From an uncultured delta proteobacterium (lineage in GTDB: Bacteria > Desulfobacterota > BSN033 > UBA1163): a DNA stretch of 64,000 bases. How positions within the stretch are numbered: the first letter of the stretch is position 1; the number at the start of each line of letters is the position of its first letter. The position numbers and the translations under genes were made by a program. The notes under the pieces were generated by a model. It worked only from the letters and a program-made list of their open reading frames with translations. It was not told the DNA's origin and ran no database searches. Positions 4,856 to 51,282 of this stretch are shown one piece after another. The DNA is taken from NCBI GenBank assembly GCA_963708295.1, contig CAVPSJ010000004.1, positions 1,024,001 to 1,088,000 on the forward strand, given 5' to 3'.

Positions 4856-4943
4856 ATACTAACGCTATAGAGCCAAGCCGACCGGCCACAGATGCTGACG
4901 AAAAGCACAGAGCTATCGTGGGTCGGCTTCAGTGACTTATAGG
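4856..4943 (-). other. attC-like integron recombination site
   Basis: Minus strand CCTATAAG-TCACTGAAGCCGAC...GTCGGCTTGGCTCTATAGC-GTTAGTA, directly after the stop of 4947..5222; imperfect palindrome. Confidence 0.75.
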
Positions 4944-4946
4944 GTC

Positions 4947-5222
4947 TCAGTTTTCCTCTCCATATATTTCCAGGTCATCAAATCTTGTTGGAAACTTCCC
5001 CCATTTCCTAAAATCAGATTCCGTGAGATTTTTGTACTTTTCTGTTTCGGTATGTCTCACATTCCAAGCGGTGTTTAGGTGATGATATGCATGTCTGAGG
5101 GAAAGCTCCAGCTCCACCTCGGCTGGTTTTTTAGTCGAGGCTATCTGCAATTCCAATTCTTCTAGCTCTTCTCGGGCCTCCTTGATGTTCGACAATATTA
5201 TTTTCCAATTTAGTTTCTTCAT
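4947..5222 (-). CDS. Hypothetical protein (gene cassette)
   Basis: 91-aa AT-rich ORF; 5' boundary TTATAGG is complementary to CCTATAA in the downstream attC. Confidence 0.75.
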   Translation of the reverse strand: MKKLNWKIILSNIKEAREELEELELQIASTKKPAEVELELSLRHAYHHLNTAWNVRHTETEKYKNLTESDFRKWGKFPTRFDDLEIYGEEN

Positions 5223-5268
5223 GGTTTACCTATAATAATAATTAGATTGCAGGTTGTAATTTCCTAAA

Positions 5269-5297
5269 ATCCTATACATACTGGTTGGTTTTGTCAA
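5269..5297 (-). promoter_or_regulatory. Sigma-70-type promoter facing the cassettes
   Basis: TTGACA-N17-TAGGAT on the minus strand. Confidence 0.6.
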
Positions 5298-5331
5298 ACA
5301 AATTTCTCCAGAATTTACAATGATTCAACTG

Positions 5332-5516
5332 GCCACTCAATTATTAGTCAATCCATATTCATGTAGACACTGAAGACCAAATCCCTCCTTCCCTCCCTTT
5401 GCGAAAGGGAGGAATTACCCCTCTTTGGCAAAGAGGGGCAAGGGGAGATTTTCTGAAGCGTATGTCTTCCTTATTATGGACTCCTTAGTAAGTGGCTCAG
5501 AGATTTGGAGGCGTTC
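5332..5516. repeat. REP/MITE-like palindromic element
   Basis: Nested hairpins ctccctttgcgaaagggag and cccctctttggcaaagagggg inside imperfect terminal repeats (gccact...tccata / tatgga...agtggc). Confidence 0.6.
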
Positions 5517-5562
5517 TCTTAGAGGAATAACTATGTGGACGGAACTATGGTTTATGCCCGTC

Positions 5563-5982
5563 TTAAGGGTACTGTAAATCGAAGGCATTCCGAATTAGTT
5601 CAATTTCTTCCCTCGCAGGGGGAAGGAGGATGGCCACGACATCAAACCTTGCTTTTATATCTTCAAGTTTCTTCTCTTTGAGGAAATAGAGTGCCACTTT
5701 GGACAGTTGCCTCTGTTTAAATGGAGTGACCGCCAGTTGGGGAGGACCGAAGGCCATCGATGTCCTGGTTTTCACCTCGACGAAGACCAGGGTATCCTTC
5801 TCTTTGGCAATGATGTCCATCTCGCCCATCTTGCAGACATAATTCTGTTCAAGAATGCGATAGCCCTTCTTCTTCAAGAATCGAAGGGCCTTCTCCTCGC
5901 CCGTTTTGCCAAGTTCCTTCTTTTCTCTCCGTGGCTCGTGCCCGTGATCCGTGTCCGTAGCTAATCCTTTCTTATCTTTCAA
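5563..5982 (-). CDS. yraN: YraN family (UPF0102) putative endonuclease
   Basis: LGKTGEEKALRFL, GEMDIIA, LVFVEVKTR, ARFDVVAI; downstream of rnhB. Confidence 0.93.
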   Translation of the reverse strand: MKDKKGLATDTDHGHEPRREKKELGKTGEEKALRFLKKKGYRILEQNYVCKMGEMDIIAKEKDTLVFVEVKTRTSMAFGPPQLAVTPFKQRQLSKVALYFLKEKKLEDIKARFDVVAILLPPAREEIELIRNAFDLQYP

Positions 5983-6018
5983 CTGCCCACTGCTTACTGC
6001 CTACTGGTAGCTGATTGA

Positions 6019-6648
6019 TTATAAGTACTCCTTCACTCCTCGAAAGGTCTTGCGGTGGAGCTCGCAGACGCCGAATCTTTCAATCGCCCGTTGATGTTCC
6101 CTGGTGCCGTAACCCTTGTGCCTGGCAAAATTATACTGAGGGTACTTCAGATGACATTCCGACATCATTTGGTCCCGGGTGACTTTGGCTATGATGGAAG
6201 CGGCCGCAATGGAGTTGCAGAGCCGATCGCCTTTTCGGATGGGTTTCTGAGGAATGGGGAGTTCAAGACCACCCTGGGAGCCGTCGATCAGGATAAAATC
6301 GGGAGGGGAGGGGAGGTTTTCGATGGCCAGGGCCATGGCTTTTAACGTGGCCTGGAGAATATTGATGCGATCGATCTCCTCCTGGCCGATCACGCCGATG
6401 CCTACTCCTTCGGCCTCTTCAAAGATCGTTTTGTAAAGCTGCTCCCGTTTTTTTGATGGAATTTGTTTTGAGTCAAAAAGCTTCTCTGTGATGCCTTCCT
6501 GAGGCAGGATCACTGCTGCAGCGACAACCGGTCCGGCGAGGGGCCCCCTCCCAACCTCGTCCACACCGGCGATCCGATGATAACCCCGACGAGAATACAT
6601 CTTCTCGAAATAGTCCATGGGCTGGGGTGGTAGATCTGGGAAGAGCAT
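6019..6648 (-). CDS. rnhB: Ribonuclease HII
   Basis: IAGVDEVGRGPLAGPVVAAA, DSK, IAAASIIAKVTRD, HKGYGT. Confidence 0.97.
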   Translation of the reverse strand: MLFPDLPPQPMDYFEKMYSRRGYHRIAGVDEVGRGPLAGPVVAAAVILPQEGITEKLFDSKQIPSKKREQLYKTIFEEAEGVGIGVIGQEEIDRINILQATLKAMALAIENLPSPPDFILIDGSQGGLELPIPQKPIRKGDRLCNSIAAASIIAKVTRDQMMSECHLKYPQYNFARHKGYGTREHQRAIERFGVCELHRKTFRGVKEYL

Positions 6649-6741
6649 AACAAACAAAGTAGGCAGTGAGCAGTAAGCAGAACAAAATTACGGATTGGAT
6701 CTCCTGCTGCCTACTACATTCTGCCTTCCGCATTCTGATTG

Positions 6742-7095
6742 TTAAGCGACTTTTTTCTTTTCTCCTCGAATACGAGCTGCTTTTCCCTTCAGGCCCCGAA
6801 GGTAGAAAAGCTTAGCCCTTCTTACCTTGCCCCGGTTGATCACGTCGATACGATCGACCCGGGGGGAGTGGGCGGGGAAAATCCTCTCAACGCCGACCCC
6901 GTAAGAGATTTTCCTCACGGTGAACGAAGATCGAATGCCTCCCTTCTTCTTGCGAATGACCACTCCTTCGAAGGGCTGTATTCTTTCCTTCTCTCCCTCA
7001 ACGATCTTTACATGGACCCTTATGGTATCACCCACCCTGAAGTCCGGGAGATCTGTCCTTAACTGTTCTCTTTCAACTGCTTCCATCAGGTTCAT
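6742..7095 (-). CDS. rplS: 50S ribosomal protein L19
   Basis: [38 protein letters not shown]. Confidence 0.98.
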
Positions 7096-7206
7096 CTTCT
7101 TCTCCTCCTACGCTTGATCAAACCCGCAGAGAGCAAAGCGCATAGCGCAAAGCGAAAAAAATAAGAAATTGAAACTCTATGCTCTATGTCCCATGGGCCG
7201 TACTTT

Positions 7207-7773
7207 TTAGATTGTTCTGTCCCCTAACAACCGGTCCAAAATGATGGCCACTGCCGAGCGCACTGAAAGGTGATTATACCCTTTTCCTTCTATCGGCGCC
7301 AGAACATAATCGGAATCGTCCCTGACCTGCTGCGTTAAACCCCATCCTGTCCCAAACAGAATGAAATAGGGCGTGGTTTCATCTTTCAATAACTTTCTGA
7401 AAAAATCGAAATCAATGCCTTTGGGATGAGGCGAGGCCCCTGTGGCCACTCTTTTCACTCTTTTCTGCCAGAGATCGGAGATCGTTCGATCGGCTTCGTC
7501 AATGGTCCGTGAGACGTGGACGAGAGACAGAGACTCCTTTCGGGTCGGATTGTAAACCGACCCAAAGCCTTCTACCCAGTGTCGAATGATCCTTTCCGCT
7601 AACTGAACCTGGCTTTCTAGAGGGGTGATGATGAAAAACCCTCCTATTCCGAACGTCTTGGCACAACGGGCAATATCATGAATATCAAAGTTGGTGACGG
7701 CGGTGGCTACGATTTCCTTTCTTTTGTCATAAACCGGATGGTGGACCAGTCCGATATAAAGATTAGAACTCAT
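7207..7773 (-). CDS. SPOUT-class RNA methyltransferase (family found after trmD)
   Basis: LVHHPV, TAVTNFDIHDIAR, FGTGWGL, YNHLSVRSAVAIILDRL. Confidence 0.88.
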   Translation of the reverse strand: MSSNLYIGLVHHPVYDKRKEIVATAVTNFDIHDIARCAKTFGIGGFFIITPLESQVQLAERIIRHWVEGFGSVYNPTRKESLSLVHVSRTIDEADRTISDLWQKRVKRVATGASPHPKGIDFDFFRKLLKDETTPYFILFGTGWGLTQQVRDDSDYVLAPIEGKGYNHLSVRSAVAIILDRLLGDRTI

Positions 7774-8557
7774 TCTTATCCTTCATCCGCATCGCGCAAT
7801 CCGCACTCGGCATTCCGCCATGATCTTGTGAATGAAGAGCTTCCTCCAGGAGCCCTTTCTCCTCGTCGGTGAGACTGGCCTTCGCTAAAAGATCCGGCCG
7901 TCTCGACGAGGTTCGCTTGATGGCCTCCTGTCTCCTCCAGAGAGAAATCGCTGAGTGATTTCCCGAAAGCAGCACTTCCGGAACGCGACGTCCTCTGAAA
8001 TCTACAGGGCGCGTGTACTGAGGATATTCCAGAAGGGAGTTGAAAAAGGAATCATCTTCTGCCGAGCGGTCGGACCCCAAAACTCCGGGGATAAATCTTG
8101 AGACTGCGTCGATCAGAACCATCGCTGCCAGTTCCCCTCCTGTCAGGACATAGTCCCCGATCGAGATCTCCTCGTCGATGAACTCTTTCGCCCTTTCGTC
8201 CACCCCTTCGTATCGGCCACAAAGAAGGACAAGATGGGGCCGGGTGGAAAGCCTCCTGGCCAGATCCTGATCGAGAGGTTTTCCCTGGGGAGTCAAATAA
8301 ATGGTCCAGGCGGATCGATCTTGTGACTTGACGGACTCGATAGCCCGGGCGATGGGCTCCACTTTCATCACCATGCCCTGGCCTCCTCCATAAGGGGCAT
8401 CATCTACCACCTGATGTTTATCCAGCGCGAAGTTACGGATATTAACGGTTTGAATCTGGATAAGTCCTTTTTCGACGGCCTTTCCCAGGATGCTTTCCTG
8501 AAGCGGGGAAGAAAACATGTTGGGAAAGAGGGTAAGCACGTTAAATTTCATCCTCAT
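7763..8557 (-). CDS. trmD: tRNA (guanine37-N1)-methyltransferase
   Basis: VLTLFP, DDAPYGGGQGMVMK, CGRYEGVDER, SIGDYVLTGGE, LLSGNH. Confidence 0.98.
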   Translation of the reverse strand: MRMKFNVLTLFPNMFSSPLQESILGKAVEKGLIQIQTVNIRNFALDKHQVVDDAPYGGGQGMVMKVEPIARAIESVKSQDRSAWTIYLTPQGKPLDQDLARRLSTRPHLVLLCGRYEGVDERAKEFIDEEISIGDYVLTGGELAAMVLIDAVSRFIPGVLGSDRSAEDDSFFNSLLEYPQYTRPVDFRGRRVPEVLLSGNHSAISLWRRQEAIKRTSSRRPDLLAKASLTDEEKGLLEEALHSQDHGGMPSADCAMRMKDKNEF

Positions 8558-9068
8558 TCTCCCACAGGCCCTCCATTCGGACGACCTTCATCACCCTTTC
8601 CTTGAGATTAATGCTCTGGATGACCCCTTCTATCGCCGGGAGAAAGATTTCTCCCCTTTTCCCTTCGACCACATAGACGTCATTGGCTCCCGTAGGAATG
8701 ATTTCCTTCACCTTTCCGATCCTTTTACCTTCCTGCGTCTCAACCTCCATTCCCAGGAGGTCGGCCCAATAATACTCTCCTTCTTCTAATTCAGGGAGGG
8801 CTTCCTTCTTGACGAAAATCTCTTTTCCGATGAGGGGCTCTGTCTCTTCAATCTTCTCGATGCCCCTCAATCGAAGGATGAGGCGACGTGGCTGGGTAAC
8901 GACTTCTAAAATTTCATAGGGTTCCAGCCCCCTCGTTTCGTTCTGGATAAAGATCTCCCGATAAGAAAAAAAACGGCGGAGGTCGTCTCCAAAGTACTCC
9001 ACCTTCATCTTCCCCTTGACCCCGTGGGGTTTGACTACCCTGCCAATGGGGAAAAGATTTTTCTCCAT
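8541..9068 (-). CDS. rimM: 16S rRNA processing protein RimM
   Basis: IGRVVKPHGVKG, EGEYYWADLLG, TGANDVYVV; operon position. Confidence 0.96.
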   Translation of the reverse strand: MEKNLFPIGRVVKPHGVKGKMKVEYFGDDLRRFFSYREIFIQNETRGLEPYEILEVVTQPRRLILRLRGIEKIEETEPLIGKEIFVKKEALPELEEGEYYWADLLGMEVETQEGKRIGKVKEIIPTGANDVYVVEGKRGEIFLPAIEGVIQSINLKERVMKVVRMEGLWENEDEI

Positions 9069-9194
9069 AGACCTTTATTGAGATTTCCGAAAAAGTCCGG
9101 AAATCTCTGATCCCATTGAGTAGAAACCGATGACACGGGGATGAAATTTATTGAGACTTCGGGAAAATCCGTGTCATCCGGAGGGCAGGCCTTC

Positions 9195-9431
9195 TTATTC
9201 GATGATCTCTAAAACGGAACGTTTCCCCACATTCGCTGAGACAGCGCCCAGGATGACCCGGATGGCCCGGGCCGTCCGGCCCTGTCTTCCGATCACCTTC
9301 CCCAAATCTTCCTTGGCCACCGAAAGTTCAATCACAGAAGTCTTTTCACCTTCAATCTCAGACACCTTGACTTGATCCGGATGATCGACCAATGCCTTGG
9401 CAATATACTCCACCAGCTCCTTTGCGCTCAT
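9195..9431 (-). CDS. khpA: KH-domain RNA-binding protein KhpA
   Basis: [28 protein letters not shown]; between rpsP and rimM. Confidence 0.93.
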
Positions 9432-9501
9432 GACCCCACCTCCACTTTTCGCATCAGTCCCGAAGAGATTCATGGTCAGCAAGGATTTTGGAAAAGGCGG
9501 C

Positions 9502-9771
9502 TTATTCGGTCTTCCCTTCAGCCGGCTTCTTTGAAATTCCAGATCGAATCAAAAGTTGACGAACGGTCGGGGTGGGCTGAGCTCCCTTTCTCAGCCACTC
9601 CCTCGCCTTTTCTTCCTTAAACCGAACCTCCACCGGATCCTTCTTGGGATCGTATGTTCCCACCTGCTCAATAAATTTACCACTCCTGGCAGCCCGGCGA
9701 TCCGAAACCACAATTCGGTAATAGGGGGTTTTCTTCCCTCCAAATCTCATCAATCTCATGGATGCAGCCAT
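9502..9771 (-). CDS. rpsP: 30S ribosomal protein S16
   Basis: [30 protein letters not shown]. Confidence 0.97.
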
Positions 9772-9907
9772 ATCGTTTCTTACCACCTCCTTTGGTTGAA
9801 ATTGGAATATTGGAATGATGGATTAGAAATCATCTGCCAGTGACAGATCTTGAATGGACCCATTATTCCATTGTTCCATTATTCCACCGTTCCAGTAAAT
9901 GTGACGA

Positions 9908-11248
9908 TCACGAAAAGAACGGGGCCCGGCCTCTTCCGAACCCTTTCTCTCCCATTTTAGCAAACTGCTTCATCATCTTTCGAGCCTGGGCGTACTGTTT
10001 GAGAAGCCGGTTGATCTCCTGGACGCTCGTCCCACTTCCCCGGGCAATCCTCAATCTCCGACTCCCGTTGATGATCTGATAATTGGCCCGTTCTCTTGGG
10101 GTCATAGAATTGATGATGGCTTCCACCCTACCCAATTCCTTCTCGTCGAAATCGAGCCCCCCCATCCCCTTCATCTTTTTCGGAAGTCCCGGGATCATTC
10201 CCAGGATCGATTCCAAAGACCCCATCTTCCGAACCTGTTGGATCTGGTCCCGAAAATCTTCCAGGGTAAAGGAATCTTTTCGGATCTTTTTCTCCAGCTC
10301 CTTTGCCGTTTTCTCATCGAAGGCGGCCTCTGCCTTCTCAATCAGGGTAAGGACGTCTCCCATCCCCAGAATTCTCTGGGCCATTCGATCGGGATGAAAA
10401 GGTTCCAGAGCGTCCAGCTTTTCTCCCACTCCCATAAATTTGATGGGTTTTTGTGTGACGGATTTAATCGAAAGAGCAGCTCCCCCCCGTGCGTCTCCAT
10501 CCATTTTGGTCAGAACGACTCCGTCAATGCCCAGACGGTCATTAAAATTCTTTGCGATGTTAACCGCGTCCTGCCCGGTCATCGCGTCGGCGACCAGGAG
10601 TACCTCTCTCGGCTTAATCTGAGCCTTGATCTCCCGCAGTTCGAGCATGAGGGCCTCATCGATATGCAGCCTCCCGGCGGTATCGATGAGCATCAAATCG
10701 TAACCTCCCTTCAGGGCAACGTCCCGCGCCTTCAAACAGATGTCGATCGGCGTTTGAGACGCTTCGGGACGATAGAAATCAACCTTTAACTCTTCTCCTA
10801 ATTTCTGCAACTGGTCGATCGCTGCGGGCCGGTAAACGTCAGCGGGAACGAGATAAGGTCTTTTTTTCTTTTCCTGAAAGTATCGGGCCAGTTTACCGGC
10901 GGTGGTCGTCTTTCCACAGCCGTGGAGGCCGACCAGCATAATTGGAACAGGAGGGCTTCCTGAAAGCTGAATTTTCTGCTCTTCGGCGCCCATCAAGGAG
11001 GTCAACTCTTCTCTTACAATCTTGATCAATTGCTGAGCGGGCGTCAGACTTCCCATCACTTCCTGGCCGACCGCTCTTCCCTGGACCTGCTGAATAAAAT
11101 CCTTGACGACCTTGAAATTGACATCCGCCTCCAGGAGGGCAATCCTCACCTCCTTCAGGGCTTCCTGAATGTTCTCCTCCGTCAACTTTCCGTGGCCTCT
11201 CAGCTTTTTGAAAACCGAATCTAATCTTGCCGAAAGATTTTCAAACAT
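9908..11248 (-). CDS. ffh: Signal recognition particle protein
   Basis: ALLEADVN, GCGKTTT, DTAGR, TKMDGDARGG, RILGMGD; Met-rich M domain. Confidence 0.98.
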   Translation of the reverse strand: MFENLSARLDSVFKKLRGHGKLTEENIQEALKEVRIALLEADVNFKVVKDFIQQVQGRAVGQEVMGSLTPAQQLIKIVREELTSLMGAEEQKIQLSGSPPVPIMLVGLHGCGKTTTAGKLARYFQEKKKRPYLVPADVYRPAAIDQLQKLGEELKVDFYRPEASQTPIDICLKARDVALKGGYDLMLIDTAGRLHIDEALMLELREIKAQIKPREVLLVADAMTGQDAVNIAKNFNDRLGIDGVVLTKMDGDARGGAALSIKSVTQKPIKFMGVGEKLDALEPFHPDRMAQRILGMGDVLTLIEKAEAAFDEKTAKELEKKIRKDSFTLEDFRDQIQQVRKMGSLESILGMIPGLPKKMKGMGGLDFDEKELGRVEAIINSMTPRERANYQIINGSRRLRIARGSGTSVQEINRLLKQYAQARKMMKQFAKMGEKGFGRGRAPFFS

Positions 11249-16373: not shown

Positions 16374-16435
16374 CGACAAGTGTATCGTTCCGTTAAGAAA
16401 CGGAACGCTCGAAGTCGAAATCGGAGAGAAAAGAA

Positions 16436-16705
16436 ATGGATTGGAAGATTTTTCTTACCACTTTCGGAACAATTTTCCTTGCCGAACTGGGTGACAAGAC
16501 ACAGTTGGCGGCCATCATGATGACTTCCAAGACAAAACTTCCCTGGTCGGTATTTGCCGGGGCCGCTCTCGCTCTGTGCCTCGTCACACTGATTGGAGTT
16601 CTCTTCGGTGAGGGTCTGATCGCCGTCATCCCCGGGAATATTCTCAAGAAGGGGGCTGCGTTAGCCTTCGTCGTCATCGGGGTATGGATGTTCTTCAGCA
16701 AATAG
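16436..16705 (+). CDS. TMEM165/GDT1 (UPF0016) single-repeat cation transporter
   Basis: IFLAELGDKTQL motif; 3 TM segments; 89 aa. Confidence 0.9.
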   Translation: MDWKIFLTTFGTIFLAELGDKTQLAAIMMTSKTKLPWSVFAGAALALCLVTLIGVLFGEGLIAVIPGNILKKGAALAFVVIGVWMFFSK

Positions 16706-16850
16706 CCTCCAGCTACATCACAACTTTACCACATAAAGAAGATTCACCGATTTTTTCACGAACAATATAAAGACAGGAGACTCTGTCCGGGATGGAGACC
16801 TAGGAGACCACATTATTTGATCTGTCCGAGCCCTTTGACAGCCACGGTGA

Positions 16851-16947
16851 GTATGACGCTCAGGCTGAGCTGTGGTGGGCCGCAGCGAGAAACGCAAACT
16901 GAGACGGTCTGATATAAGAACAAGCCGTTAGCTCCAGCCCGTTAGGC
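16851..16947 (-). other. attC-like site (degenerate R')
   Basis: Minus strand GCCTAAC-GGGCTGGAGCT...AGCTCAGCCTGAGC-GTCATAC, 3 nt after the stop of 16951..17373. Confidence 0.7.
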
Positions 16948-16950
16948 AGC

Positions 16951-17373
16951 CTAATAGCTACGACACCCTTTAAAGTTGCACATCTTATTATTTGTTTTTG
17001 TTGAGCCACAACTGAAATATAGTTCTCCTGTCCGCCATGATCTTTTTGCATATACATAAGGATACCCACATTTTGGGCAAGAGCCAGTAGCTATCTGACC
17101 TTTAAAATCTGGGCGAGAATAGGGTGTTTTCGCGCTAGTATTAACCTCATTTTCCTTGTCGGGCGAAATTATCAAATAATCACTTTTCCCTTTGTACATT
17201 CCAATACTAATTCTTGCAATATAATAAAACACATAAAGAACCGCCATAATTATGACAATTTGAACAATGCGATACCAATTCGCGCTCGAATATTTTTCAA
17301 AATATTTCTCAAAATCTTTCCCAAATAATATCTCTAGAGCTTTTATTAGAAGGTTGATAATAAAATGGATCAT
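16951..17373 (-). CDS. Membrane protein with C-terminal zinc ribbon (gene cassette)
   Basis: TM helix, then CPKCG...YFSC...CNF; AT-rich; bounded by GTTCGGCAG and CTGCCTAAC. Confidence 0.75.
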   Translation of the reverse strand: MIHFIINLLIKALEILFGKDFEKYFEKYSSANWYRIVQIVIIMAVLYVFYYIARISIGMYKGKSDYLIISPDKENEVNTSAKTPYSRPDFKGQIATGSCPKCGYPYVYAKRSWRTGELYFSCGSTKTNNKMCNFKGCRSY

Positions 17374-17405
17374 TGTATGAATTGGTCCCTATAATTAATT
17401 TATCT

Positions 17406-17541
17406 GCCGAACGAAAAGGCTTACCGGGAGCCGGATTTATCCGGCTAAGGCCCGATGATTTCTGCGAACCGCCCATTGCGGACCCGCATGATGGGTGGTG
17501 TGGGGAGGGACGGCTAACTACCGTCCCTTACCCGATTGGGC
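17406..17541 (-). other. attC site interrupted by a group II intron remnant
   Basis: R'' GCCCA 2 nt after the stop at 17544; R' GTTCGGC at 17412-17406; internal hairpin agccggataaatccggct. Confidence 0.7.
17466..17536 (+). mobile_element. Group II intron (class C) 3' end, domains V-VI only
   Basis: GAACCGCCCATTGCGGACCCGCATGATGGGTGGTGTGGGGAG (DV), GGGACGG-ctaacta-CCGTCCC-TTACCCGAT (DVI and AT end). Confidence 0.88.
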
Positions 17542-17543
17542 CG

Positions 17544-18716
17544 TCAATTCCGTTTCTCAAATGCAGAACATGGGCACGATTCTTTATGTTCGATTTTAAT
17601 GACTTCTTTTCCTTTAGCATCTATAGTCAATTTCTTAGCTGAATTCGTATAACCTTTGGTTTCCGGATCTTTAACCCAATAGTTCCATAGAATATAACCT
17701 TCTTTAGTTACAATGACTGGGTACCATTCCGCCTCATCACCTTGTTGGAGACAAGGTAAATAGTCATGAACTTCAATTATCAGGTTTTGCTTTTTGTTCT
17801 CTACATTCAACTTCCATAGTTGTCGACTGGACTTTTTGGTTCTAAAAAAATAAATTGAATCTCCGTCTGATGACCACGCAGGGTATTCTCCACTAATTTT
17901 GATTATTGATTGTCCTGTCTTTGTACTGAAAACCTTAATTTCTTCTGGCTTATGATAATAACTAGTATGCCAAAAAAACTTACAATTAGGACTAAATATT
18001 GCCATGCCTCCAGGTAACTTGAAAACAGAACCGGATGAATTTATAAAATAAATATTATCACTTTCTTTTTCTTCTGAATCCCATTTTTCTTCCCAAGAAA
18101 GTTCTATATTAGGACAATCTTTTCCTAAAGGCCATCCGCTAACGCCAAAACATTTTTCTTTGGAAGAATGTTCATTTTGAGGTTCCATTATACAATCGTC
18201 GGAATAGCAATATATCCCTTTAAGAGGAATCTCTTGAATTTTGCCTTCTTTGATGTTTGTAGACCATGCTTTGATAACACTATAGTCAGACTTATTTATA
18301 AGAGCGAAGATTGGATTCTTGAAACCATTATATTTTAGATCATGGTCCTTACTATCCCCGACTTTAATTTTTTGATTATTATTGAGACTTACTTTTATGA
18401 CGTCGATTACCTTACGGTTACAGACCAACCATAAGTAATGTTCCTTACTGCTTTTAACATGCAAAAGGTCAAACACCAATTGATCAATAGGCTCTCCTTT
18501 TTTACCAATAATATGCTTAATAACAAATTGATGTTCAATCCCATGATACCTTTTGGGCAATCTAGATTTTTGAAATAATTCATTATATTCTATTATCGTA
18601 CCAATGATGTTGGAAACATCTTGATCTGCTGTTTCTGCAGCAACGCATATATTAAAAAATAATAATGAATATAAAAATAAGGAATAACTCGATAACATCA
18701 AAAGATTTCTCCTCAT
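17544..18716 (-). CDS. Secreted hypothetical protein, possible C-terminal beta-propeller/TolB-like repeats (gene cassette)
   Basis: Signal peptide; very AT-rich; YPAWSSDGDSIYF resembles a PD40-type repeat. Confidence 0.7.
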   Translation of the reverse strand: MRRNLLMLSSYSLFLYSLLFFNICVAAETADQDVSNIIGTIIEYNELFQKSRLPKRYHGIEHQFVIKHIIGKKGEPIDQLVFDLLHVKSSKEHYLWLVCNRKVIDVIKVSLNNNQKIKVGDSKDHDLKYNGFKNPIFALINKSDYSVIKAWSTNIKEGKIQEIPLKGIYCYSDDCIMEPQNEHSSKEKCFGVSGWPLGKDCPNIELSWEEKWDSEEKESDNIYFINSSGSVFKLPGGMAIFSPNCKFFWHTSYYHKPEEIKVFSTKTGQSIIKISGEYPAWSSDGDSIYFFRTKKSSRQLWKLNVENKKQNLIIEVHDYLPCLQQGDEAEWYPVIVTKEGYILWNYWVKDPETKGYTNSAKKLTIDAKGKEVIKIEHKESCPCSAFEKRN

Positions 18717-18834
18717 AACACCACCTATGTTTACACTACTAAGATTTAGTATCCATAACTCAAAGCCACAATAAACAGAATGTTTTGTAAAAAATCATAG
18801 AGTGTCTCCGCCATTAGCGCCGCGCGCAGCGCGG

Positions 18835-18852
18835 CGCTAACAATTAATAGAC
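18835..18852 (-). other. attI-like cassette insertion junction
   Basis: GTCTA-TTAATT-GTTAGCG; same spacing recurs at 5233-5247 and 51029-51043. Confidence 0.5.
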
Positions 18853-19237
18853 GAATTTCGTAGTTGCTTGGAATCGAGTCCTCAAGTTCCAGCTTTTTAC
18901 CAGTTTTAGGCGCTTTTGTATAGGAAATTGTACATAATTGTTGATTCTATTTCGTGTTTTCCCCGTAATAGCATGAAATACGAACTTCGCATAACATCGG
19001 ATTTTTGGCAAACTTAGGGGTCATGATTAAGAAATATGCTTCAACCTCAGTTTCAAGACTCCTGTTTTCTCGTTTCCTAGTCGCTGCAAAAAATGGGCCT
19101 TTTTATGCTCACAACAAGGAAAAAGAAGGTGAGAAATTTGGAATCACGACTTCAGGAAGGGGTATTTGGGCAGGAGTTCGGCGGGAAAACAAATCGCACT
19201 TATTTGAGAAACTGAAGCACGTTCCCCGGGACTGCTC

Positions 19238-20500
19238 TTATGTCTCGTTTCGACCGAACTTACGGTTCGCCTGGGCCCGCCGCTGCCGCTGGAAGCTACC
19301 GTCAGCTATTTCCTTGAAGATGACCTTTTTGAAAAGTTCGAACATCCTGTAAGGCTGGGGTTTCTCCCGGTAGAAGATTTCCCATGCCTCGTCGCATAAC
19401 TGCTCGAGGCGCTCCGGGCTCATGTGTTTTGGCTGGAAGACGACCTTGTCGCAGGTGTAGTCGTCCCAGTTGTAGGAAAGGATTCGTCCCTCCGCCTGCA
19501 GGTCTGCGAAGGCCCGAGTGTGTGGAAAGGGGGTCAATACGCTGAACTCGGCCAGGTCCAATTCTATCTCCAGGAGAAAGTCGACGATGCGGCGGATATC
19601 GTCTTCCGTATGGCGGTCGAGGCCCAGGAGAATTGCTCCCTCCACGCCGATCCCGAAGTCGCGGTAGCGCTTAACCCGGTCGCGAATAAAATCCGAGGTA
19701 TCGAAGATTGCCTGATAGACAAACCACGCCCCGGCCTGGGCCGCCAGATCAAGGACTTCATCGTCGTCCTCGATGGGGTGACAGCACCACTTCTTTTTCA
19801 AAGGAATCATTTCACGGAAGAGCTGTTTTTCCCATGCCTTGTCCTGAGCCAGGGAGTTGTCAACGATGTACAGGCGGCTGTTGTCGATGGCGGCCAGCTC
19901 CTCCAGGACCTTCTCGAGAGGGCGGGGCCTGAACTCCTTTCCTCCCACGAAGCTCATGCAGCACGGGTAGCAGTTGAACCGGCATCCCCGCGAGGCATGT
20001 AAAAGATCGACCATCTGGATTCCTTTGTAATTGTAAAGCTGCCGTTTAAGGATATCCCGCCGGGCCGTGCCGACCGAAGCGATAGGCGGAAAATCCGTCA
20101 GGTAGTCGTAGACCTTCCGGAGCCGGTTATTTCGAAAATCATCCAGGACCTGTTCCATCCGTCCTTCCGCCTCCCCGAGGAAGACGGCGTCGGCGTGAAG
20201 GGACGTCTCTTCGGCGTGAAGCATCGTTGCAATGCCGCCGAAGATGACCTTCAACCCCCGCTTGCGGTACTCGTCTGCAATTTCCCAACCCCGTTTCACC
20301 TGGCTCGTCAGCATCATCGAAATCCCGACCAAATCCGCCTGATCGTTGAAATCGATTGTCTCCAGGTTCTCATCGACGAAGGTAATGTCCACCCCTTCGG
20401 GCATTGTCGCAGCAAAGACGACGGGACCGTGGGGGGGAAGATGGAACTCCGTCTGGCGTCTGAGTTTCTTCCATTTCGGGTAGATGAGTTTGAACTTCAT
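19238..20500 (-). CDS. B12-binding-domain radical SAM protein
   Basis: VIFGGIAT, DAVFLGEAEG, SRGCRFNCYPC (CxxxCxxC), LTPFPHT. Confidence 0.9.
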   Translation of the reverse strand: MKFKLIYPKWKKLRRQTEFHLPPHGPVVFAATMPEGVDITFVDENLETIDFNDQADLVGISMMLTSQVKRGWEIADEYRKRGLKVIFGGIATMLHAEETSLHADAVFLGEAEGRMEQVLDDFRNNRLRKVYDYLTDFPPIASVGTARRDILKRQLYNYKGIQMVDLLHASRGCRFNCYPCCMSFVGGKEFRPRPLEKVLEELAAIDNSRLYIVDNSLAQDKAWEKQLFREMIPLKKKWCCHPIEDDDEVLDLAAQAGAWFVYQAIFDTSDFIRDRVKRYRDFGIGVEGAILLGLDRHTEDDIRRIVDFLLEIELDLAEFSVLTPFPHTRAFADLQAEGRILSYNWDDYTCDKVVFQPKHMSPERLEQLCDEAWEIFYREKPQPYRMFELFKKVIFKEIADGSFQRQRRAQANRKFGRNET

Positions 20501-20645
20501 AATATCTTACGAAATCCCTCCAGCTTACGCCGTCGAAAATTATTGAACGGAGATTTTCAGGACGTACTTAATACCTTTTTGGCTATTGTCTGTCGAGTGG
20601 GGCATCATCTTTTCCCCCGATCCCCCCATCTCCTTATCTCCCCAC

Positions 20646-36162: not shown

Positions 36163-36244
36163 TCACTCTGGCAACCCGGCCATCCTGAACAGGACCCGTG
36201 GCTTTCCGTCCCCCGATCACTCGAGGTTTGGCTTTGTCAGTATC
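36163..36244 (-). ncRNA. c-di-GMP-I (GEMM-I) riboswitch
   Basis: AAAGCCAAACC-TCGA-GTGA-TCGGGGGACGGAAAGCCACGGGTCCT...GGATGGCCGGGTTGCC matches the GEMM-I consensus, with a GNRA tetraloop. Confidence 0.88.
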
Positions 36245-42647: not shown

Positions 42648-42648
42648 A

Positions 42649-44929: not shown

Positions 44930-44944
44930 TGGCATGCGTCTTGC
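44930..44944 (+). promoter_or_regulatory. Sigma-54 promoter
   Basis: TGGCAT-GCGTC-TTGC, upstream of 45021. Confidence 0.7.
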
Positions 44945-45020
44945 TGAAGAATAACAACGCCATCTTCGGAGGCCGTATCTTGCCCGGCTCCGTCAGGTTG
45001 TTTTATTATGGGGATGGAGA

Positions 45021-45653: not shown

Positions 45654-45789
45654 GTCACCCCCTCCATCCTGATAAAGGTGGGTAACGGTAAATCATTCGA
45701 TTCCCATGATCGAGATGAGGGTATACCCCAGCCGGAATGATTGTCATCAAGCTGCCCAATAATGCTCCTATCGAAATTCGTCCTGTCAA

Positions 45790-46236
45790 TTACTGAACCT
45801 TGGTGAAAGTTCCGTCTTTTTTCATAGTGTATATTCCTGGTTTCAATCCAAACGTTTCATTGGAGAATACCTGCTGCGAAACCCCAACGCCTCCCGCTTT
45901 GGCCCCCAGTTCCCCCATGCCCTTTGCAAAAGTCAAAAAAGACGTGGTATCCTGGTTTGAGACGATGCCCGTCAGCATCCCTTCTGTCATTTCCACTTTA
46001 AAGTCATGTTTGGCTAATATCGTGAGAGGCTTTATGTCGTAGGCCTTCTCAAAGTCAGGTGCGGATACCAGCCAACTCGATTTCTCACCGACAAACAAAT
46101 ACATTTTAGGCGGATATACTCTAACGCCATCGGGTTTATTGTTGAGATCTGCGTTCTGGGTTTGAATCGTCGCGCAAGCAGGCACCACTAAAAGAAACGA
46201 AACAACCATAAACCAATGAATAGCCTTTGTCATCAT
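45790..46236 (-). CDS. Hypothetical lipoprotein
   Basis: AAGGAGG RBS; lipobox VPAC. Confidence 0.75.
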   Translation of the reverse strand: MMTKAIHWFMVVSFLLVVPACATIQTQNADLNNKPDGVRVYPPKMYLFVGEKSSWLVSAPDFEKAYDIKPLTILAKHDFKVEMTEGMLTGIVSNQDTTSFLTFAKGMGELGAKAGGVGVSQQVFSNETFGLKPGIYTMKKDGTFTKVQ

Positions 46237-46334
46237 ATCCTCCTTTCTCTTTTCCACCCTCCCCTCCATCAGGTCTAAGGACAGGGGTAGTTGTATAACG
46301 AAACAATCTCTTTTTTTAGTGATTCCATCAATAG

Positions 46335-47285
46335 CTAGAAAACTCTTAATGGGAACTTGGGCTCGATTTCTGCTAAATGTTTGATCGCTGGCTCCAGGGG
46401 TTGAAACCAGGCCCATCCTGCGGGTGATCGCGCCACGATGAGACCGATTGCCTTGGTTTCAGCATAGACAATGCCTCCCGAATCTCCATGTTGCACCGGC
46501 CTGTCAATGACAAAGACGTTACGGAGCGTATACCATCGGTTATTGAGCAACACTTTCACGGCACCGGCGTACGAATGGATATGCCCCTGAAGCAGCCCGG
46601 ACACCCCCAGCATACATTTTACAGACAAGAATGTGTCCAATTGGCTTTGAGGCAGGAAGTCATCCAGCTGAATATTATCTTGAATAATAAATCTATCACG
46701 TTCATCGGATAAGGCATCATCGACCCGGGCAATTGCAATGTCATATTCCATCGCTCCATGGTCATGGGTAGAGTTTTTAAGAGTCGTTGCCCTCAGGGGC
46801 TCGCCACTTTGGCGGTGAATCCGAAGTTCCTGGTTTATAGGTGGGGAATACGCTATATCTCCCGCTACATGGGCACAGGTAAGCGAGAAGAATCGGTTGT
46901 CTCCCGCCACCTTGTTCCGGAAAATTAGGGTAATGGTGCCTTGTTCATTCGGCGCCTGGGTTACCGAGCCTCCACCGCAAGAGAACTCGACGACACCCAC
47001 TTCGATAACATCCGTCTTGATCCGGACGGAGCGATCTACTCCACCGCCTTTTTTTCTACCGCATAGAAAGACGGGTAAGGCTTTATTTGAGGGTAACCCG
47101 CGTAGCTTTTGCACGACAAAAAACTGAATACACACGTCTTCGGTGGGTTGTCCACCACGAAATTTCGTTCCGGCAGAGACGCCCACGACACCGGGACGTT
47201 TCAGATAAATTCGCTCAGCGGCATCCCGTACCCGATCGAGCAACTCCCTCCTTTTTTCCGGATCATTCGCGCTTCGCCGTTTCAT
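46335..47285 (-). CDS. Trypsin-like serine protease with an N-terminal Nal1-like domain
   Basis: LTCAHV (His), YDIA (Asp), GDSGG (Ser); N-terminal GVVGV..G.K...IKTDVIEVG; no signal peptide. Confidence 0.8.
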   Translation of the reverse strand: MKRRSANDPEKRRELLDRVRDAAERIYLKRPGVVGVSAGTKFRGGQPTEDVCIQFFVVQKLRGLPSNKALPVFLCGRKKGGGVDRSVRIKTDVIEVGVVEFSCGGGSVTQAPNEQGTITLIFRNKVAGDNRFFSLTCAHVAGDIAYSPPINQELRIHRQSGEPLRATTLKNSTHDHGAMEYDIAIARVDDALSDERDRFIIQDNIQLDDFLPQSQLDTFLSVKCMLGVSGLLQGHIHSYAGAVKVLLNNRWYTLRNVFVIDRPVQHGDSGGIVYAETKAIGLIVARSPAGWAWFQPLEPAIKHLAEIEPKFPLRVF

Positions 47286-47561
47286 GCTATTCTAGAGGTA
47301 TATCTGGGCAGCCTTCATCAGTCCTTAATCATAGGAAGGCCCTTAAATCCTAAGAAGTCAGATAGAGATACAGGTCTAACTTTTTGACGAGGAGTCAGAA
47401 TTTTGATAGGGAAAACTTTAAAGACCTTTCTCCATCCCCCACCCCCCTCCGGGGGGAGAAAGTCTTGTTGAGATTGTTGGGTTAATGATAAAGGAGACAA
47501 AGCAATTGTCAACGAAAAAATAGGATTGTGAAAAGAATCTTTTTACTTACAAATTTGTGAA

Positions 47562-47714
47562 GCTTGCCGCCCACCCCGTTAAGACGGGGCAGGTACGGTG
47601 GGGCCGTTCGACAGAGCTCACGGCCCTGAGTATGTCGAATGGGCTTCCCGGCAAGGAAGTTTCGTTGATATTGTGCCCCTTGACCCCGCCTACAAGGCAG
47701 GGGTGCCGAGACAC
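47562..47714. repeat. Composite REP-like repeat cluster
   Basis: ccccgttaagacgggg, ttcgacagagctca...tgagtatgtcgaa, accccgcctacaaggcaggggt hairpins. Confidence 0.6.
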
Positions 47715-48297
47715 AATCCGGCCAGACACGGAGAGACAAGCAACGGGTGAGGAGCCAGCGCGGTCATTGGGTGTCTCCACATCTGCCATTTCCAAGATTC
47801 TGCATAGAATAGATCGAGACAGAAGGGTCCAACTTTTGTTGCGCTATCAACTTCTCTGCCAAAACTTAGTTGACTGATTATGAAAAGATGGACAGGAATA
47901 TGAACATCTTCCCATCTTCCTTTTCCATTCATTTCGTGAACGCAACCTCGAAATGGCACATCGCTGTTCCCATATCGACATCCTGCAAACTCACATCTGG
48001 GTATAATTTCGCTAACCCCGGTGTTCTGCTGATGTAAAATTGATAAATATCGATTTCGTACATTTTTCTAAATAGATTCACGACGGAGAGACAATTTTGT
48101 AACCCTAACAAGCCTCCCAATCAAGAAATAATTCGAAAGATAGATTAACTTCCAAATGGTTATCGATTCTTGACTACCTGGCATCATCCTTGCTGCGGAA
48201 TAGTGTTAAAAAAGAGACGCACAGGTCTAAACGACGACAAACCGGAGGCACACCACTGTGAAAGGTGGATCTGAGCAGACCAATGAGGAGGTGGACC

Positions 48298-49152
48298 ATG
48301 GAGAGAGGGAGCTTACATGGATATGCGGCAAACTTAGAACGAACCATGGAGACTATGCATTTGGACCTTGGGGAGGCAATGTATGAACTGCAGGAGTTAT
48401 GCTCACTTATCACCCTAGAGAGGAATGTTCCAGCGGAAACCATCACTGATATTCGCCAAATGTATAAACGAATTCAGGACCAACTCATAAAGATCAGGGG
48501 AGTCAAACAACTCCAGGAGGGAAAATACAGGCAGTACTATCACCGGGACTCTCAGCGAGAAAGAGAGATCACCGAATTTGCATTTTTGGCCAAGAGCTTG
48601 TATTCGAAATTCGAATCCATGTTACAGGAGGTAGGGGCAAAGAGAAAGCTAAGAGATGGGGAAGCAGAATCTAGAGAGGTTCCTCAGCATATCCCGGTTC
48701 AATGGTTCCAATCTAAAGGGAATCAGGTCATGCTTTTAAGAAACCTAAGGGATCTGTACGAACTGAACTATGGAGCCCAGCTTGGCTTGGAGGGAGAGCA
48801 GAGACGAGAGATCATTCGGAATGGGATGCGGAGTATCTCCCTCTTTGCCATGTCAGGAGAGGCGGCATTGATTGACCATCTTCAATCCCGCATGCGATTG
48901 CGAGAATATGATATCAAAGAGCGTTTTGCAAAAGACGAGTGCCGTGGGGCTTTAACCCATTTGAAGGAAATATCTCTTCTAGATGTAGAAAGGGTAATTA
49001 GGCGTTTCACGGGCAGCATTGGCTTTTCAAAAGTGAAATGTTTGCTTCTCAGAATTCAATCTCAGAAGGATCTCGAAAAAGAAATTATAGGGTCAATAGA
49101 GAACATTTTACGCGTGACGGAGGTGGGAGAGATGAGAACGCTATCAGTATGA
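48298..49152 (+). CDS. Hypothetical protein (N-terminal helical/coiled-coil region)
   Basis: GAGGAGG RBS; 284-aa ORF. Confidence 0.75.
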   Translation: MERGSLHGYAANLERTMETMHLDLGEAMYELQELCSLITLERNVPAETITDIRQMYKRIQDQLIKIRGVKQLQEGKYRQYYHRDSQREREITEFAFLAKSLYSKFESMLQEVGAKRKLRDGEAESREVPQHIPVQWFQSKGNQVMLLRNLRDLYELNYGAQLGLEGEQRREIIRNGMRSISLFAMSGEAALIDHLQSRMRLREYDIKERFAKDECRGALTHLKEISLLDVERVIRRFTGSIGFSKVKCLLLRIQSQKDLEKEIIGSIENILRVTEVGEMRTLSV

Positions 49153-49224
49153 AAACCGCTTCCCCCGAGAAGTGTCACTCTACACGTATTTAGAACAGAG
49201 ATTGCCTATTGGAATGGATTGGAA

Positions 49225-49439
49225 TGGAGAGAATAGCCGTGGAGGTCAAGGGAACAGCGATCATAACCATACCCCTCTCCATAAAGGGACGTTTTTGCGA
49301 GGCAGGATTAAAACAATGGATAGGCGCCCTGACGCCGGAGGCCCGTGAGGTTTATCCAGCCTCGGTCTTGGCGAGATCCTGGTATCCCCTGAAAGAGTTC
49401 TTAATCCAACCGCTTCGCAGGATGTGCAACCTAAAATGA
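49225..49439 (+). pseudogene. Truncated hypothetical protein (EVKGT...SWYP family)
   Basis: Resembles the N-terminus of DUF2378-like proteins and ends abruptly. Confidence 0.4.
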
Positions 49440-49685
49440 CTGGTCGAAGAGCCCGGGAAGTAACCTCGCATCCTAGATTCAGTGGCTGCCTAAGAAATGG
49501 GCAGATAGATCAGGTCAGTGGTATCGGAACACACCCCAGAGGCTTACGGTTTCTTTTCAAAAGCTGTAGGGGCATCGTTTTATCCTTCCGTGTAGACGCC
49601 TCTCCCAGAAAATCCCCGCTGAAGACTTCACAAGTCCTCAGTCCAGCATAGGGCATGTCGTTACGTATAGCGGGATGAAAGAGTT

Positions 49686-49743
49686 GAATAACGTTTTAGA
49701 TCAGTGGTGGCTGCACGCCGTCCGCTGGAGTGATTTGCTAGGC
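49686..49743 (-). other. attC site
   Basis: Minus strand GCCTAGC-AAATCACTCCAGCGGACGGC...GCCACCACTGATCTAAAAC-GTTATTC; 58 bp. Confidence 0.8.
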
Positions 49744-49798
49744 GCTCTTTTAGTAAAAATTGCTCTGAGTAAACATTTATCGCATGAGGAAAGCTGCC

Positions 49799-50998
49799 CT
49801 ACCTTATCTTACTAATACGGATCTTATACGAGTCACCTATCTTTTCGATGATCTTGATCTCGATGTTGTTCTTCTTGTCCATGAACTCTCCCTTCCCCGG
49901 CAGGTCGAAGGCAGCACCCTGGAGATTGGGGACAGAGGGGTCTGCACTTATCAGTTTGACCGGTGATTTCCCGTATCTGCATTCTTCAATACTATCGTCC
50001 GCATACATGATCAGAACACCTTTGCCGGGAAGGTAGGGGTCAAAACTGCCAATTGGCTGCCGGTTCTCGACGAGATAAAATTTCGACTCTGTAAGTGGGA
50101 TTTTTATCACGAGCGTTTCTGATGATCCGTCTTCGAGTGGGCCGAGCACAACTTCGCTTACCTTCTTTGGATCCACCACCCGTACCTTTTCTTGGGCAGT
50201 CCAGCCGAGTCTCAACTTAGTCCATGATGATATGCCCGGCGGCGGAATATTCCGCTTGTAGAAATGGCAGGAAAGTGGATCCCAGTAACCCATATTGATT
50301 AGCGCGTCTGCAAAGCCGGTATCTTGTGTGGGATGTTTTGACTGAATGTCATGGTCGTAGAGGCAGGGTAATACTCTTTTTCCAGCACTCACTCCACCCC
50401 AGATATGGGCTATATCATGAAAAAGTGTGCCAAGGTGTGCCTGATAAGTGAAGATCGCAACTCCACCTGGAACAATCTGTCCGCTTTTGGTCTTAAATAT
50501 AATATCCTGTTTCCACCCGAGCATACCCGGAAATCCACAGAGTCCTACCATACCGTATTCTCTGAACTGAGCACCGAGAAACAGGACAACGAAGGAATAC
50601 CTGGAAAAATCATTCTTTTCATCTGCGGCATCAATGGCATTCTGTATAAGTCTTACGACCCGTGACTTGTCGACTTGTAGATTGGCTGGAGAGATAGCGT
50701 ACCGCTTAACGGAATCAGGGAGTCGATGCCACCCTGTGATATCGAAGTCAGTGCATACCTTCCCGTAAGACATTTCGCGTACATAAAAGTCAAGTTTTTT
50801 GAAACGCTCCCTGACAAAGTCTTCATTTACCGGAGGGACAATGTTCGGAAACTCGACAAGAATGACTAGCCCCTTCCTCCTTTCACAAACATCTCCACGT
50901 TGTTCCTTCGGATGGGCACTCACTGTGGGAAAAATTAGCCAAACTATAGCGGCGACAATGAGGCTGGCTATCGCCCTTCTTCTCCGATGGAATTTCAT
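49799..50998 (-). CDS. Secreted M6 (immune inhibitor A-like) metalloprotease-family protein (gene cassette)
   Basis: LVILVEFP, YVREMSYGK, HDIAH, SWTKLRLGW, YLVENRQ, GVLI. Confidence 0.8.
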   Translation of the reverse strand: MKFHRRRRAIASLIVAAIVWLIFPTVSAHPKEQRGDVCERRKGLVILVEFPNIVPPVNEDFVRERFKKLDFYVREMSYGKVCTDFDITGWHRLPDSVKRYAISPANLQVDKSRVVRLIQNAIDAADEKNDFSRYSFVVLFLGAQFREYGMVGLCGFPGMLGWKQDIIFKTKSGQIVPGGVAIFTYQAHLGTLFHDIAHIWGGVSAGKRVLPCLYDHDIQSKHPTQDTGFADALINMGYWDPLSCHFYKRNIPPPGISSWTKLRLGWTAQEKVRVVDPKKVSEVVLGPLEDGSSETLVIKIPLTESKFYLVENRQPIGSFDPYLPGKGVLIMYADDSIEECRYGKSPVKLISADPSVPNLQGAAFDLPGKGEFMDKKNNIEIKIIEKIGDSYKIRISKIR

Positions 50999-51282
50999 GT
51001 CAATTTCTCCTTACTTCTCTTTTTCGCCTACCAGATATTAGACCTAAGAATAATATCTATTATACAATGCCTAGGTTTCGGATAACCTGCTAACATTTAA
51101 AGGATTTCTGTGGCGAAAAACATGGATATCCCCAAATCCAAAGGGCGCGATGGTTTTTTGGGAAGCTTACCAGGCATCCGCGGAGGAAAACAGGGTTCGA
51201 CCCGACCGTTCCCAATTCTCCGTGAACTGGGCAAGCGACTTTGCCAATTTCCGGAGTGCCTTCGTGATCCATTTGCAGTAGT

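Follow-up and report, generated by a model that had tools for sequence, protein, structure and literature searches.

How do integron gene cassettes come to stand at three widely separated loci in a stretch of DNA that holds no integron integrase gene (intI)? The question is raised by 64,000 nucleotides from an uncultured delta proteobacterium (genome G000, contig C4, 1024001-1088000; the whole of this stretch is called the window), in which a first-pass annotation described cassettes ended by attC recombination sites at all three loci and proposed a distributed integron, with many attI-like landing pads served in trans by one integrase. We favour a different reading, to which a probability of about 0.75 is given: that the window holds decayed sedentary integrons whose heads (attI, with a predicted promoter in one family) have been preserved, namely remnants of at least two integrons of two families, at loci 1 and 2, and one headless cluster at locus 3. 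The first-pass proposal had been built on a motif at the start of the first cassette of each locus. Its three instances were confirmed on the minus strand, at 5247-5229, 18852-18835 and 51043-51025. The motif as such is not enriched: the window has 3 matches to RTCTA-N6-RKTA where 1.41 +/- 1.23 are expected, and three or more arose in 16 of 100 shuffles. What makes it informative is only that two of the instances fall on genuine attI cores.

Genomes and search models

The G000 assembly totals 4.95 Mb in 20 contigs and is 91.5% complete. Integrase genes were sought with the TIGR02249 profile (integron integrase, cut-off 265 bits) and by tblastn with the IntI of a relative. Two covariance models of attC, R1 (14 sites) and R2 (22 sites), were used; they are lineage-specific, are not those of IntegronFinder, and were trained on sites that all lie outside the window. 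The R1 training alignment shows covariation: paired cells make up 85.2%, compared with 76.4% after shuffling (none of 500 shuffles reached as much), eight pairs have changed on both sides, and two columns are bulged. Heads of type A were sought with R3, a sequence-only model of ten copies, locus 1 among them, and those of type B with an nhmmer model from which the row of the window was left out. The genus comparison covered 15 genomes (G000 and 14 relatives), and a wider integrase search covered 41 genomes including G000. A strict scanner of our own for AAC...GTT stems was dropped, as it gave nothing useful even in arrays adjoining intI. When the candidate sites were compared with the genome by BLAST, neither locus 1 nor locus 3 proved to belong to a repeat family, and the first hint for locus 2 emerged.

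A type A head without an integrase at locus 1

At locus 1 an orphan module of type A, comprising a putative cassette promoter and attI (Pc-attI), was located at 5227-5312 on the minus strand. It scored 75.3 bits with R3 (expectation value, E, 1.7e-22), and the next-best match in the window scored 8.3 bits. The module is homologous to DNA that adjoins complete integrase genes. In relative G013 (contig C87) the DNA next to a full intI reads TTGACA, then TATAGGAT, then ...GAAATTAC...TGCAGTTCAATAATTGTT, followed by cassettes, and window 5312-5227 (minus strand) is homologous to this intI-side DNA. The type A module lies 250-400 nt from a full intI in G013:C87, G021:C300, G021:C399 and G020:C54. 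Type A copies share the core GTTCAATAATTGTT, and the motif instance ATCTA-ATTATT-ATTA proved to be the type A crossover core GTTCA-ATAATT-GTTA with A in place of G, the crossover triplet at 5236-5234 (minus strand) being ATT where the family has GTT. When 21 type A copies were aligned (210 pairs), mean pairwise identity was 0.64-0.73 across the last 30 nt and the GTT, and 0.26-0.35 directly beyond, with 0.69-0.73 at the crossover itself and 0.31 just past it; such a collapse right after GTT marks a junction of site-specific recombination. A preceding model of three rows, locus 1 among them, had found further copies in the same genome at C1:41142-41263, C16:51882-51978 and C17:52398-52503 (E 1.4e-30 to 8.3e-8), and a fourth at C17:54466-54536 (E 0.38). 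From this homology locus 1 is identified as a real attI junction without an adjoining integrase. A promoter predicted by scanning lies within the conserved module, with a TTGACA -35 box at 5297-5292, a TAGGAT -10 box at 5274-5269 (minus strand), a 17-nt spacer and 10 of 12 matches, and the locus 1 cassette is probably read from it.

The first cassette contains an open reading frame (ORF) of 91 amino acids (4947-5222, minus strand) with no Pfam match and ends in a degenerate attC at 4857-4946 (minus strand; R' GTTAGTA at 4866-4860), to which R2 gave 9.7 bits and E 5.3. This site is 88% identical over 64 nt to an attC in G053:C52 (L154 4459-4546) that scores 41.8 bits with R2 and belongs to an array counting at least nine same-strand attCs, and it carries TAT where the homologue has the AAC of R''. 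Because of this identity and this replacement, 4857-4946 is read as a putatively genuine but damaged attC. Its bottom strand folds at -16.9 kcal/mol (z-score -3.1). The complementarity between cassette start and R'' that had been described as a mark of IntI-mediated insertion is present as a 7-nt match between TTATAGG (5235-5229) and CCTATAA (4943-4937), in a register 3 nt off the R'' of the family; it is suggestive, not proven. Complementarity of the cassette start to its own R'' amounts to 8 of 8 at contig C1 of the same genome and 8 of 9 in G008.

Upstream of the head lie rnhB (6019-6657) and yraN (UPF0102; 5563-5982), both on the minus strand and identified by Pfam, which are core genes flanking a type A head in five species. 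Downstream lie asd and a DUF3795 gene (4332-4823, minus strand) that is joined to the locus 1 attC at the R' GTT and is sited elsewhere in relatives. The asd, DUF3795 and yraN blocks occupy three separate places in relatives, and the locus 1 array is thus truncated at a synteny break. In G007 the DUF3795 flank stays homologous as far as window 4865, a position barely within the R' GTT (4866-4864), and G007 has GTT there too. This join of attC to DUF3795 DNA, as judged from a single junction, is compatible with recombination of an attC with a secondary site.

A second family of heads at locus 2

Locus 2 carries an orphan attI-side region of a second family, type B, at 18839-19113 (minus strand), matched by nhmmer over 18838-19113 at 195.7 bits (E 8e-60). 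Its crossover GTT is at 18841-18839 (minus strand), beyond which the sequences diverge in an alignment with G013:C108. Type B regions share the core GTCTATTAATTGTT, the core CGTCTATTAATTGTT is identical between locus 2 and the intI-linked copy of G013:C108, and the motif instance GTCTA-TTAATT-GTTA is the type B crossover core. The region adjoins a full intI in G013:C108 and G021:C250, and a partial copy lies beside the full intI of G011:C108. Further copies in G000 were found at C17:551753-552038 and C20:73212-73635. The type B matches across the genus, 24 in number, mostly terminate at the GTT or at most 3 nt past it (query positions 287-290). A simple scan of locus 2 found no sigma-70-like promoter. 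Locus 2 had initially been taken for a chance occurrence (R3 gave 6.7 bits and E 0.4 at 18836-18875, and nhmmer nothing), a reading overturned by the type B homology of its flank at 18837-19112, on which locus 2 is identified as a real attI junction of the second family without an adjoining integrase.

The first cassette ORF at this locus (390 amino acids, 17544-18716, minus strand) has a weak match to the PD40 repeat and is followed by an attC remnant at 17402-17465 (minus strand). The 3' half of the remnant, 17407-17441, is kept through R' GTTCGG and has an nhmmer match to the corresponding half of an attC subfamily (28.8 bits, E 4.3e-8), with GTT then preceding the next ORF, and the 5' half has diverged. 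The remnant aligns with R2-positive attCs elsewhere in the genome; R2 itself lists nothing at locus 2 at E <= 10. The R'' of the remnant is eroded. The next ORF (140 amino acids, 16951-17373, minus strand; no Pfam match) is a second candidate cassette, and no model supports an attC after it (about 16855-16948). A perfect 12-bp GC palindrome at 18814-18840, which starts at the crossover and folds at -18.3 kcal/mol (z-score -4.3), was considered as an attC and was excluded by its GTT...AAT topology; it matches neither R1 nor R2.

Locus 2 lies, together with a gene for a B12-binding radical SAM protein, on a 4.2-kb segment (about 16407-20610) that is missing at the same place in G010 and G004, where its flanks abut within 28 nt and 75 nt, respectively. 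The place is a variable hotspot between two convergent core genes. Inserts of unrelated content occupy it in G008 (1.2 kb) and G003 (3.9 kb), and neither a type B head nor an attC was found in them.

A headless cluster at locus 3

Locus 3 has two strong attCs. One is at 51458-51518 (minus strand; R'' GCCCAAC, R' GTTATAC; R2 35.4 bits, E 3.5e-7) and closes a cassette with an alpha/beta-hydrolase ORF identified by Pfam (51473-52450, minus strand); the other, at 49686-49744 (minus strand; R'' CGCCTAGC, with AGC replacing AAC, R' GTTATTC; R2 58 bits, E 1.8e-13), closes a cassette with an ORF of 399 amino acids (49799-50998, minus strand). With two same-strand attCs 1.7 kb apart and no intI in the window, 49686-51518 is by definition an attC cluster that has no integrase (CALIN). 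The GTT of R' is retained by four attC sites of the window, namely those at locus 1 and locus 2 and the two at locus 3.

The third motif instance (51025-51043, minus strand) has no R3 or type B match at E <= 10. Given the strong upstream attC, the cassette ending at 49686 starts at the G|TT of that site (51464), and the junction of the first-pass annotation falls about 430 nt inside it. As an attI the junction was rejected, since it matches neither family and sits downstream of another attC. An attC within 51087-51200, which would have made the junction a cassette boundary, was also rejected, there being no model match and no homology beyond a 27-nt motif. The complementarity described here, TAGGCG (51030-51025) to CGCCTA (49744-49739), is present, with a chance expectation of about 0.11 per approximately 470 nt. 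The TTGACA near 51308, which had been taken for a promoter aimed at the junction, lies inside the cassette and is part of the 27-nt motif, AAAAGGTGTATATTAC..GCAAATG. Copies of this motif occur at about 52545-52500 and 51312-51265 of the window (minus strand), upstream of the neighbouring cassette ORF too, and at C4:561925, C17:432506, C17:30774, C17:231436, C11:219742 and C14:345001, in cassettes or near attCs. The motif may be a cassette-borne promoter.

The features first described at the three loci fared unequally. The conserved attI-like junction stands at loci 1 and 2 and falls at locus 3, and of the two promoters the one within the locus 1 module is retained. The attC-derived sites at the ends of the cassettes are sites that pass the lineage covariance model at locus 3, a putatively damaged site at locus 1 and a half site at locus 2, with the second site of locus 2 discarded.

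Integrase genes and their remnants

The absence of intI from the window was borne out: the genome has 19 TIGR02249 matches, all of them outside C4:1024001-1088000, and tblastn found nothing in the window at E <= 0.01. None of the 19 matches exceeds the 265-bit cut-off, and with no full intI in the assembled genome there would be no resident integrase to serve the sites, and its arrays would at present be static. The best match is an 87-amino-acid open frame covering model positions 250-315 at C4:1007421-1007618, 16 kb left of the window. At G000:C4:1007421-1012107 (L035 3421-8107), 12-16 kb left of the window, this C-terminal IntI fragment (minus strand) abuts six plus-strand attCs; together they are another decapitated integron. 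On contig C1, IntI residues 3-50 are kept next to the type A module.

Integron integrases are common in the lineage even so: across the 41 genomes an over-cutoff TIGR02249 match was found in 12. Within the genus, matches at E <= 1e-40 occur in 6 of the 14 relatives, several of them only fragments, and TIGR02249 searches found no full intI in G010 and G003, as in G000. G010, which is assembled in two contigs, has 10 type A heads and as its sole IntI trace a fragment of 128 residues. G021 and G020 have six and four intI matches, respectively.

The integron integrases of this lineage (L012/L021 of G013:C87 and other intI loci) have open frames of 345-459 amino acids, mostly 427-459, compared with the 315 positions of the model. 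The extension of about 110 amino acids is N-terminal, and contig C1 retains only an N-terminal piece. Weak TIGR02249 matches in G000 also pointed to sets of adjacent tyrosine-recombinase genes repeated at C8:163966-165589, C12:214-1837 and C5:100290-101922, which we take to be candidate recombinase-in-trio elements.

The yraN-adjacent head in five species

A type A head adjoins yraN in five species (G000, G010, G008, G007 and G014). The five heads have a mean identity of 0.70 upstream of the crossover and 0.29 over the 60 nt downstream, and the spacer between yraN and the module is unalignable among the species. Beyond yraN and the module, tblastx found only short attC-like stretches in common. 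Same-strand attCs stand behind the head in G010, G008 and G007; in G014 no attC was detected there at E <= 1. Differently filled versions of a locus, which the first-pass annotation had suggested looking for in relatives, thus exist at the yraN head.

Remnants of IntI lie between yraN and the module in G007 (residues 369-428) and G014 (residues 403-428), and G007 retains the full intergenic region out to -301. Because these remnants and this region persist, the yraN locus is read as the seat of a once complete integron, whose intI was lost in place through what appear to be different deletions in different species. Together with the remnant on C1, they point to decay of once-complete integrons, not to a system distributed by design.

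Heads, attC sites and cassettes across the genus

With R3 at E <= 0.01, 75 type A copies were found in all 15 genomes of the genus, among them 5 in G000, 10 in G010 and 12 in G006. Type B gave its 24 matches at E <= 1e-6 in 12 of the 15 genomes, and the four in G000 include two pieces of one copy. A single type A copy of the 75 (G013:C87) adjoins an intI match of the 41-genome search, in a set where at least three plus-strand copies lie within 350 nt of a contig start and are not judgeable. By R2 at E <= 0.01, G000 has 25 attCs and G010 has 26, spread over many loci. A same-strand attC lies within about 2.2 kb of 3 of the 10 G010 heads at E < 0.01 and of 4 of the 10 at E <= 1, and in G000 attCs stand behind the type A head of C1. 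In G013, which has two full intI genes, an attC (E 8e-11 to 0.11) stands behind every one of the five orphan type A heads; tblastn found no IntI remnant at these five heads.

Tandem type A heads 1.2-3.4 kb apart on one strand were found in G000 (C17:52410-54539; L042), G010 (L135) and G013 (L147), the order in the last being head, cassette, attC, head, cassette, attC. For two G010 heads a duplication was seen that extends over the first cassette as well, running from -141 to about +400/+500. A homologous cassette that has no ORF and opens with a strong hairpin (GTTCGGCGGGGAC...GTCCCCGCCGAAC) is shared by G008 (L142 3720-3935), where it is first behind a type A orphan, by G013:C108 (L022, about 637-700), where it is first behind an intI-linked type B head, and by G010 (L050), where it occurs twice inside an array. 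One cassette gene family is common to three platforms of G000 at 83-84% identity. No near-identical cassette copies bounded at G|TT, as expected of recent copying, were found within G000, only paralogues of 83-85%. Cassette families common to several platforms point to exchange among heads, which these homologies leave undated.

Other features of the window

Between yraN and the locus 1 module lies a dispersed REP-like repeat (5339-5495). This REP/MITE-like (repetitive extragenic palindrome/miniature inverted-repeat transposable element) sequence of 150 nt (query about 2237-2393) has more than 100 matches in the 15 genomes of the genus and contains G/C-rich hairpins. An ORF adjoining an IntI fragment (L001 2317-3198) presumably encodes a REP-associated tyrosine transposase, a label given from reading the sequence. 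Rfam contains no attC family, and the sole match to it in the window was a c-di-GMP-I-GGC riboswitch aptamer at 36166-36241 on the minus strand (65.1 bits against a gathering score of 59).

Alternative explanations

If the window holds decayed sedentary integrons, each genome of the lineage would have had several such integrons, belonging to two families, as remains the case in G021 and G020. The heads would have come from complete integrons, with intI lost by deletion in place or by rearrangement; the IntI pieces kept on C1, beside yraN in G007 and G014, and to the left of the window argue for decay in place. Locus 1 would then be a type A head beside yraN-rnhB, followed by one cassette and by an attC without AAC that was joined at its R' GTT to DNA placed elsewhere in relatives. 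Locus 2 would be a type B attI on a genome-specific insert, with a cassette or two behind it whose attCs have eroded, and locus 3 a CALIN of two attCs with no head. The heads may still be usable as landing pads if a cognate IntI were supplied. What is shown here is sequence homology to attI regions beside intI, the end of that homology at G|TT, the identity of the attC sites and the remnants of IntI; activity of the promoter, competence of the heads to recombine and the sequence in which events took place are inferred.

Several observations weigh against this reading. On its own the locus 1 attC fails the covariance model, its complementarity is out of register, the crossover there is ATT and not GTT, and the locus 2 attC is detected only as a half site. 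Several heads stand apart from attCs: 6 of the 10 in G010 have none within about 2.2 kb at E <= 1, and none was detected downstream of the G000 heads on C16 and C17 (C17a and C17b). The five type A and three to four type B heads of one genome require many separate losses of intI, and no intI lies between tandem heads, which simple deletion of intI does not explain. Finally, with the genome 91.5% complete, the missing portion could contain a full intI.

The alternative that survives best, possible and on balance doubtful, is a working distributed integron, in which selection would retain orphan heads as additional landing and expression sites, which a resident or transient IntI encoded elsewhere would fill and empty in trans. 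The excess of heads over integrases, the conservation of the yraN head beside an unalignable spacer, and the differing arrays behind it in five species suggest that heads matter after intI is lost; these three observations cannot show that cassettes moved after that loss. The array differences could predate it, and promoter function alone could account for conservation of the module. The ORF-less hairpin cassette common to a type A orphan and an intI-linked type B head, and the gene family common to three platforms of G000, likewise favour exchange in trans, against which stands the lack within G000 of any near-identical cassette pair bounded at G|TT. G000, G010 and G003 have no full intI, and the IntI remnants at orthologous heads indicate that these heads were formerly ordinary integrons. 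Heads may plausibly be served in trans by an integrase that remains, and the sole configuration fitting such service is that of G013. We are equally tentative about the more general proposal that the two attI families could be standing genome-wide landing and expression sites (about 100 heads in 15 genomes, where full intI genes number only a handful), exchanging cassettes in trans as a one-to-many system whenever a cognate IntI is present.

That the three loci are scattered fragments of one ancestral array, a possibility that the first-pass annotation had itself raised, is improbable. The synteny break at locus 1, the insert that carries locus 2 and the headless state of locus 3 would all fit such scattering. 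Loci 1 and 2 contradict it, each with its own attI head of a different family linked to a different intI in relatives, and the locus 1 head stands at the same yraN-side place in five species. Least likely is that motif and hairpins arose by chance or are terminators with no bearing on integrons. The degenerate motif does occur at chance frequency, the locus 2 palindrome has the wrong topology for an attC and short attCs fold no better than shuffles; against this, models trained outside the window gave E 8e-60, 1.8e-13, 3.5e-7 and 4.3e-8, R3 (locus 1 included) gave E 1.7e-22, and the three-row model, also with locus 1, found four further copies on C1, C16 and C17.

Comparison with known integrons and significance

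In class 1 integrons the Pc promoter at attI1 reads into the array, the crossover falls at G|TT, and the start of the first cassette is complementary to its own R''. The heads described here are like that platform in predicted promoter, G|TT crossover and R'' complementarity, and have no sequence relation to it. They are unlike it in that type B gave no sigma-70-like promoter in a simple scan.

Decayed integrons preferred here as the origin of the window loci have a counterpart in the chromosomal integron at ilvD of Xanthomonas, whose intI was repeatedly inactivated or deleted in separate lineages (Gillings et al., as cited in PMC12444791). As described there, that integron likewise has an ancestral platform at a conserved place, loss of intI, and arrays differing by lineage. 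It is a single locus, whereas two attI families with several heads per genome are found here, intI is mostly gone entirely, and promoter and attI are still recognisable. In Treponema phagedenis, attC and cassettes remain after deletion of intI and are regarded as static (PMC3607928); that is a single remnant, whose attI that paper does not analyse, and the heads described here are a multi-copy family across a genus.

CALINs, and the single attCs lacking a nearby integrase (SALINs), are defined by attC alone (PMC4889954; preprint 10.1101/2022.09.11.507474), and 49686-51518 is like them by that definition (PMC4889954). Loci 1 and 2 are unlike them in that a head is identified that has persisted without intI. 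According to Cury et al. (PMC4889954), attI is unknown for most integrons and hence not searchable, and 95% of CALINs have no nearby intI pseudogene. The locus 1 attC, joined to a GTT upstream of the DUF3795 gene, resembles an attC x attG event as presented by Loot et al. (preprint 10.1101/2022.09.11.507474). The same preprint reports that attI1 was not inserted into the genome at a significant rate, which argues against spread of the heads driven by IntI. Decay of chromosomal integrons and integrase-less clusters are thus known, and what is new here is that heads of two families persist in many copies; no paper that speaks of 'orphan attI' or 'solo attI' turned up in a literature search that covered papers without their supplements.

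Recognisable heads bear on how integrase-less cassette clusters originate, as each cluster of this lineage can be assigned to one of three sources: decapitated integrons, as at loci 1 and 2, headless fragments, as at locus 3, and insertions at a secondary site. The excess of heads, and the yraN head with unrelated arrays in five species, make this genus a concrete system for testing use of orphan attI in trans. If the one-to-many reading were true, the integron would no longer be one integrase per array.

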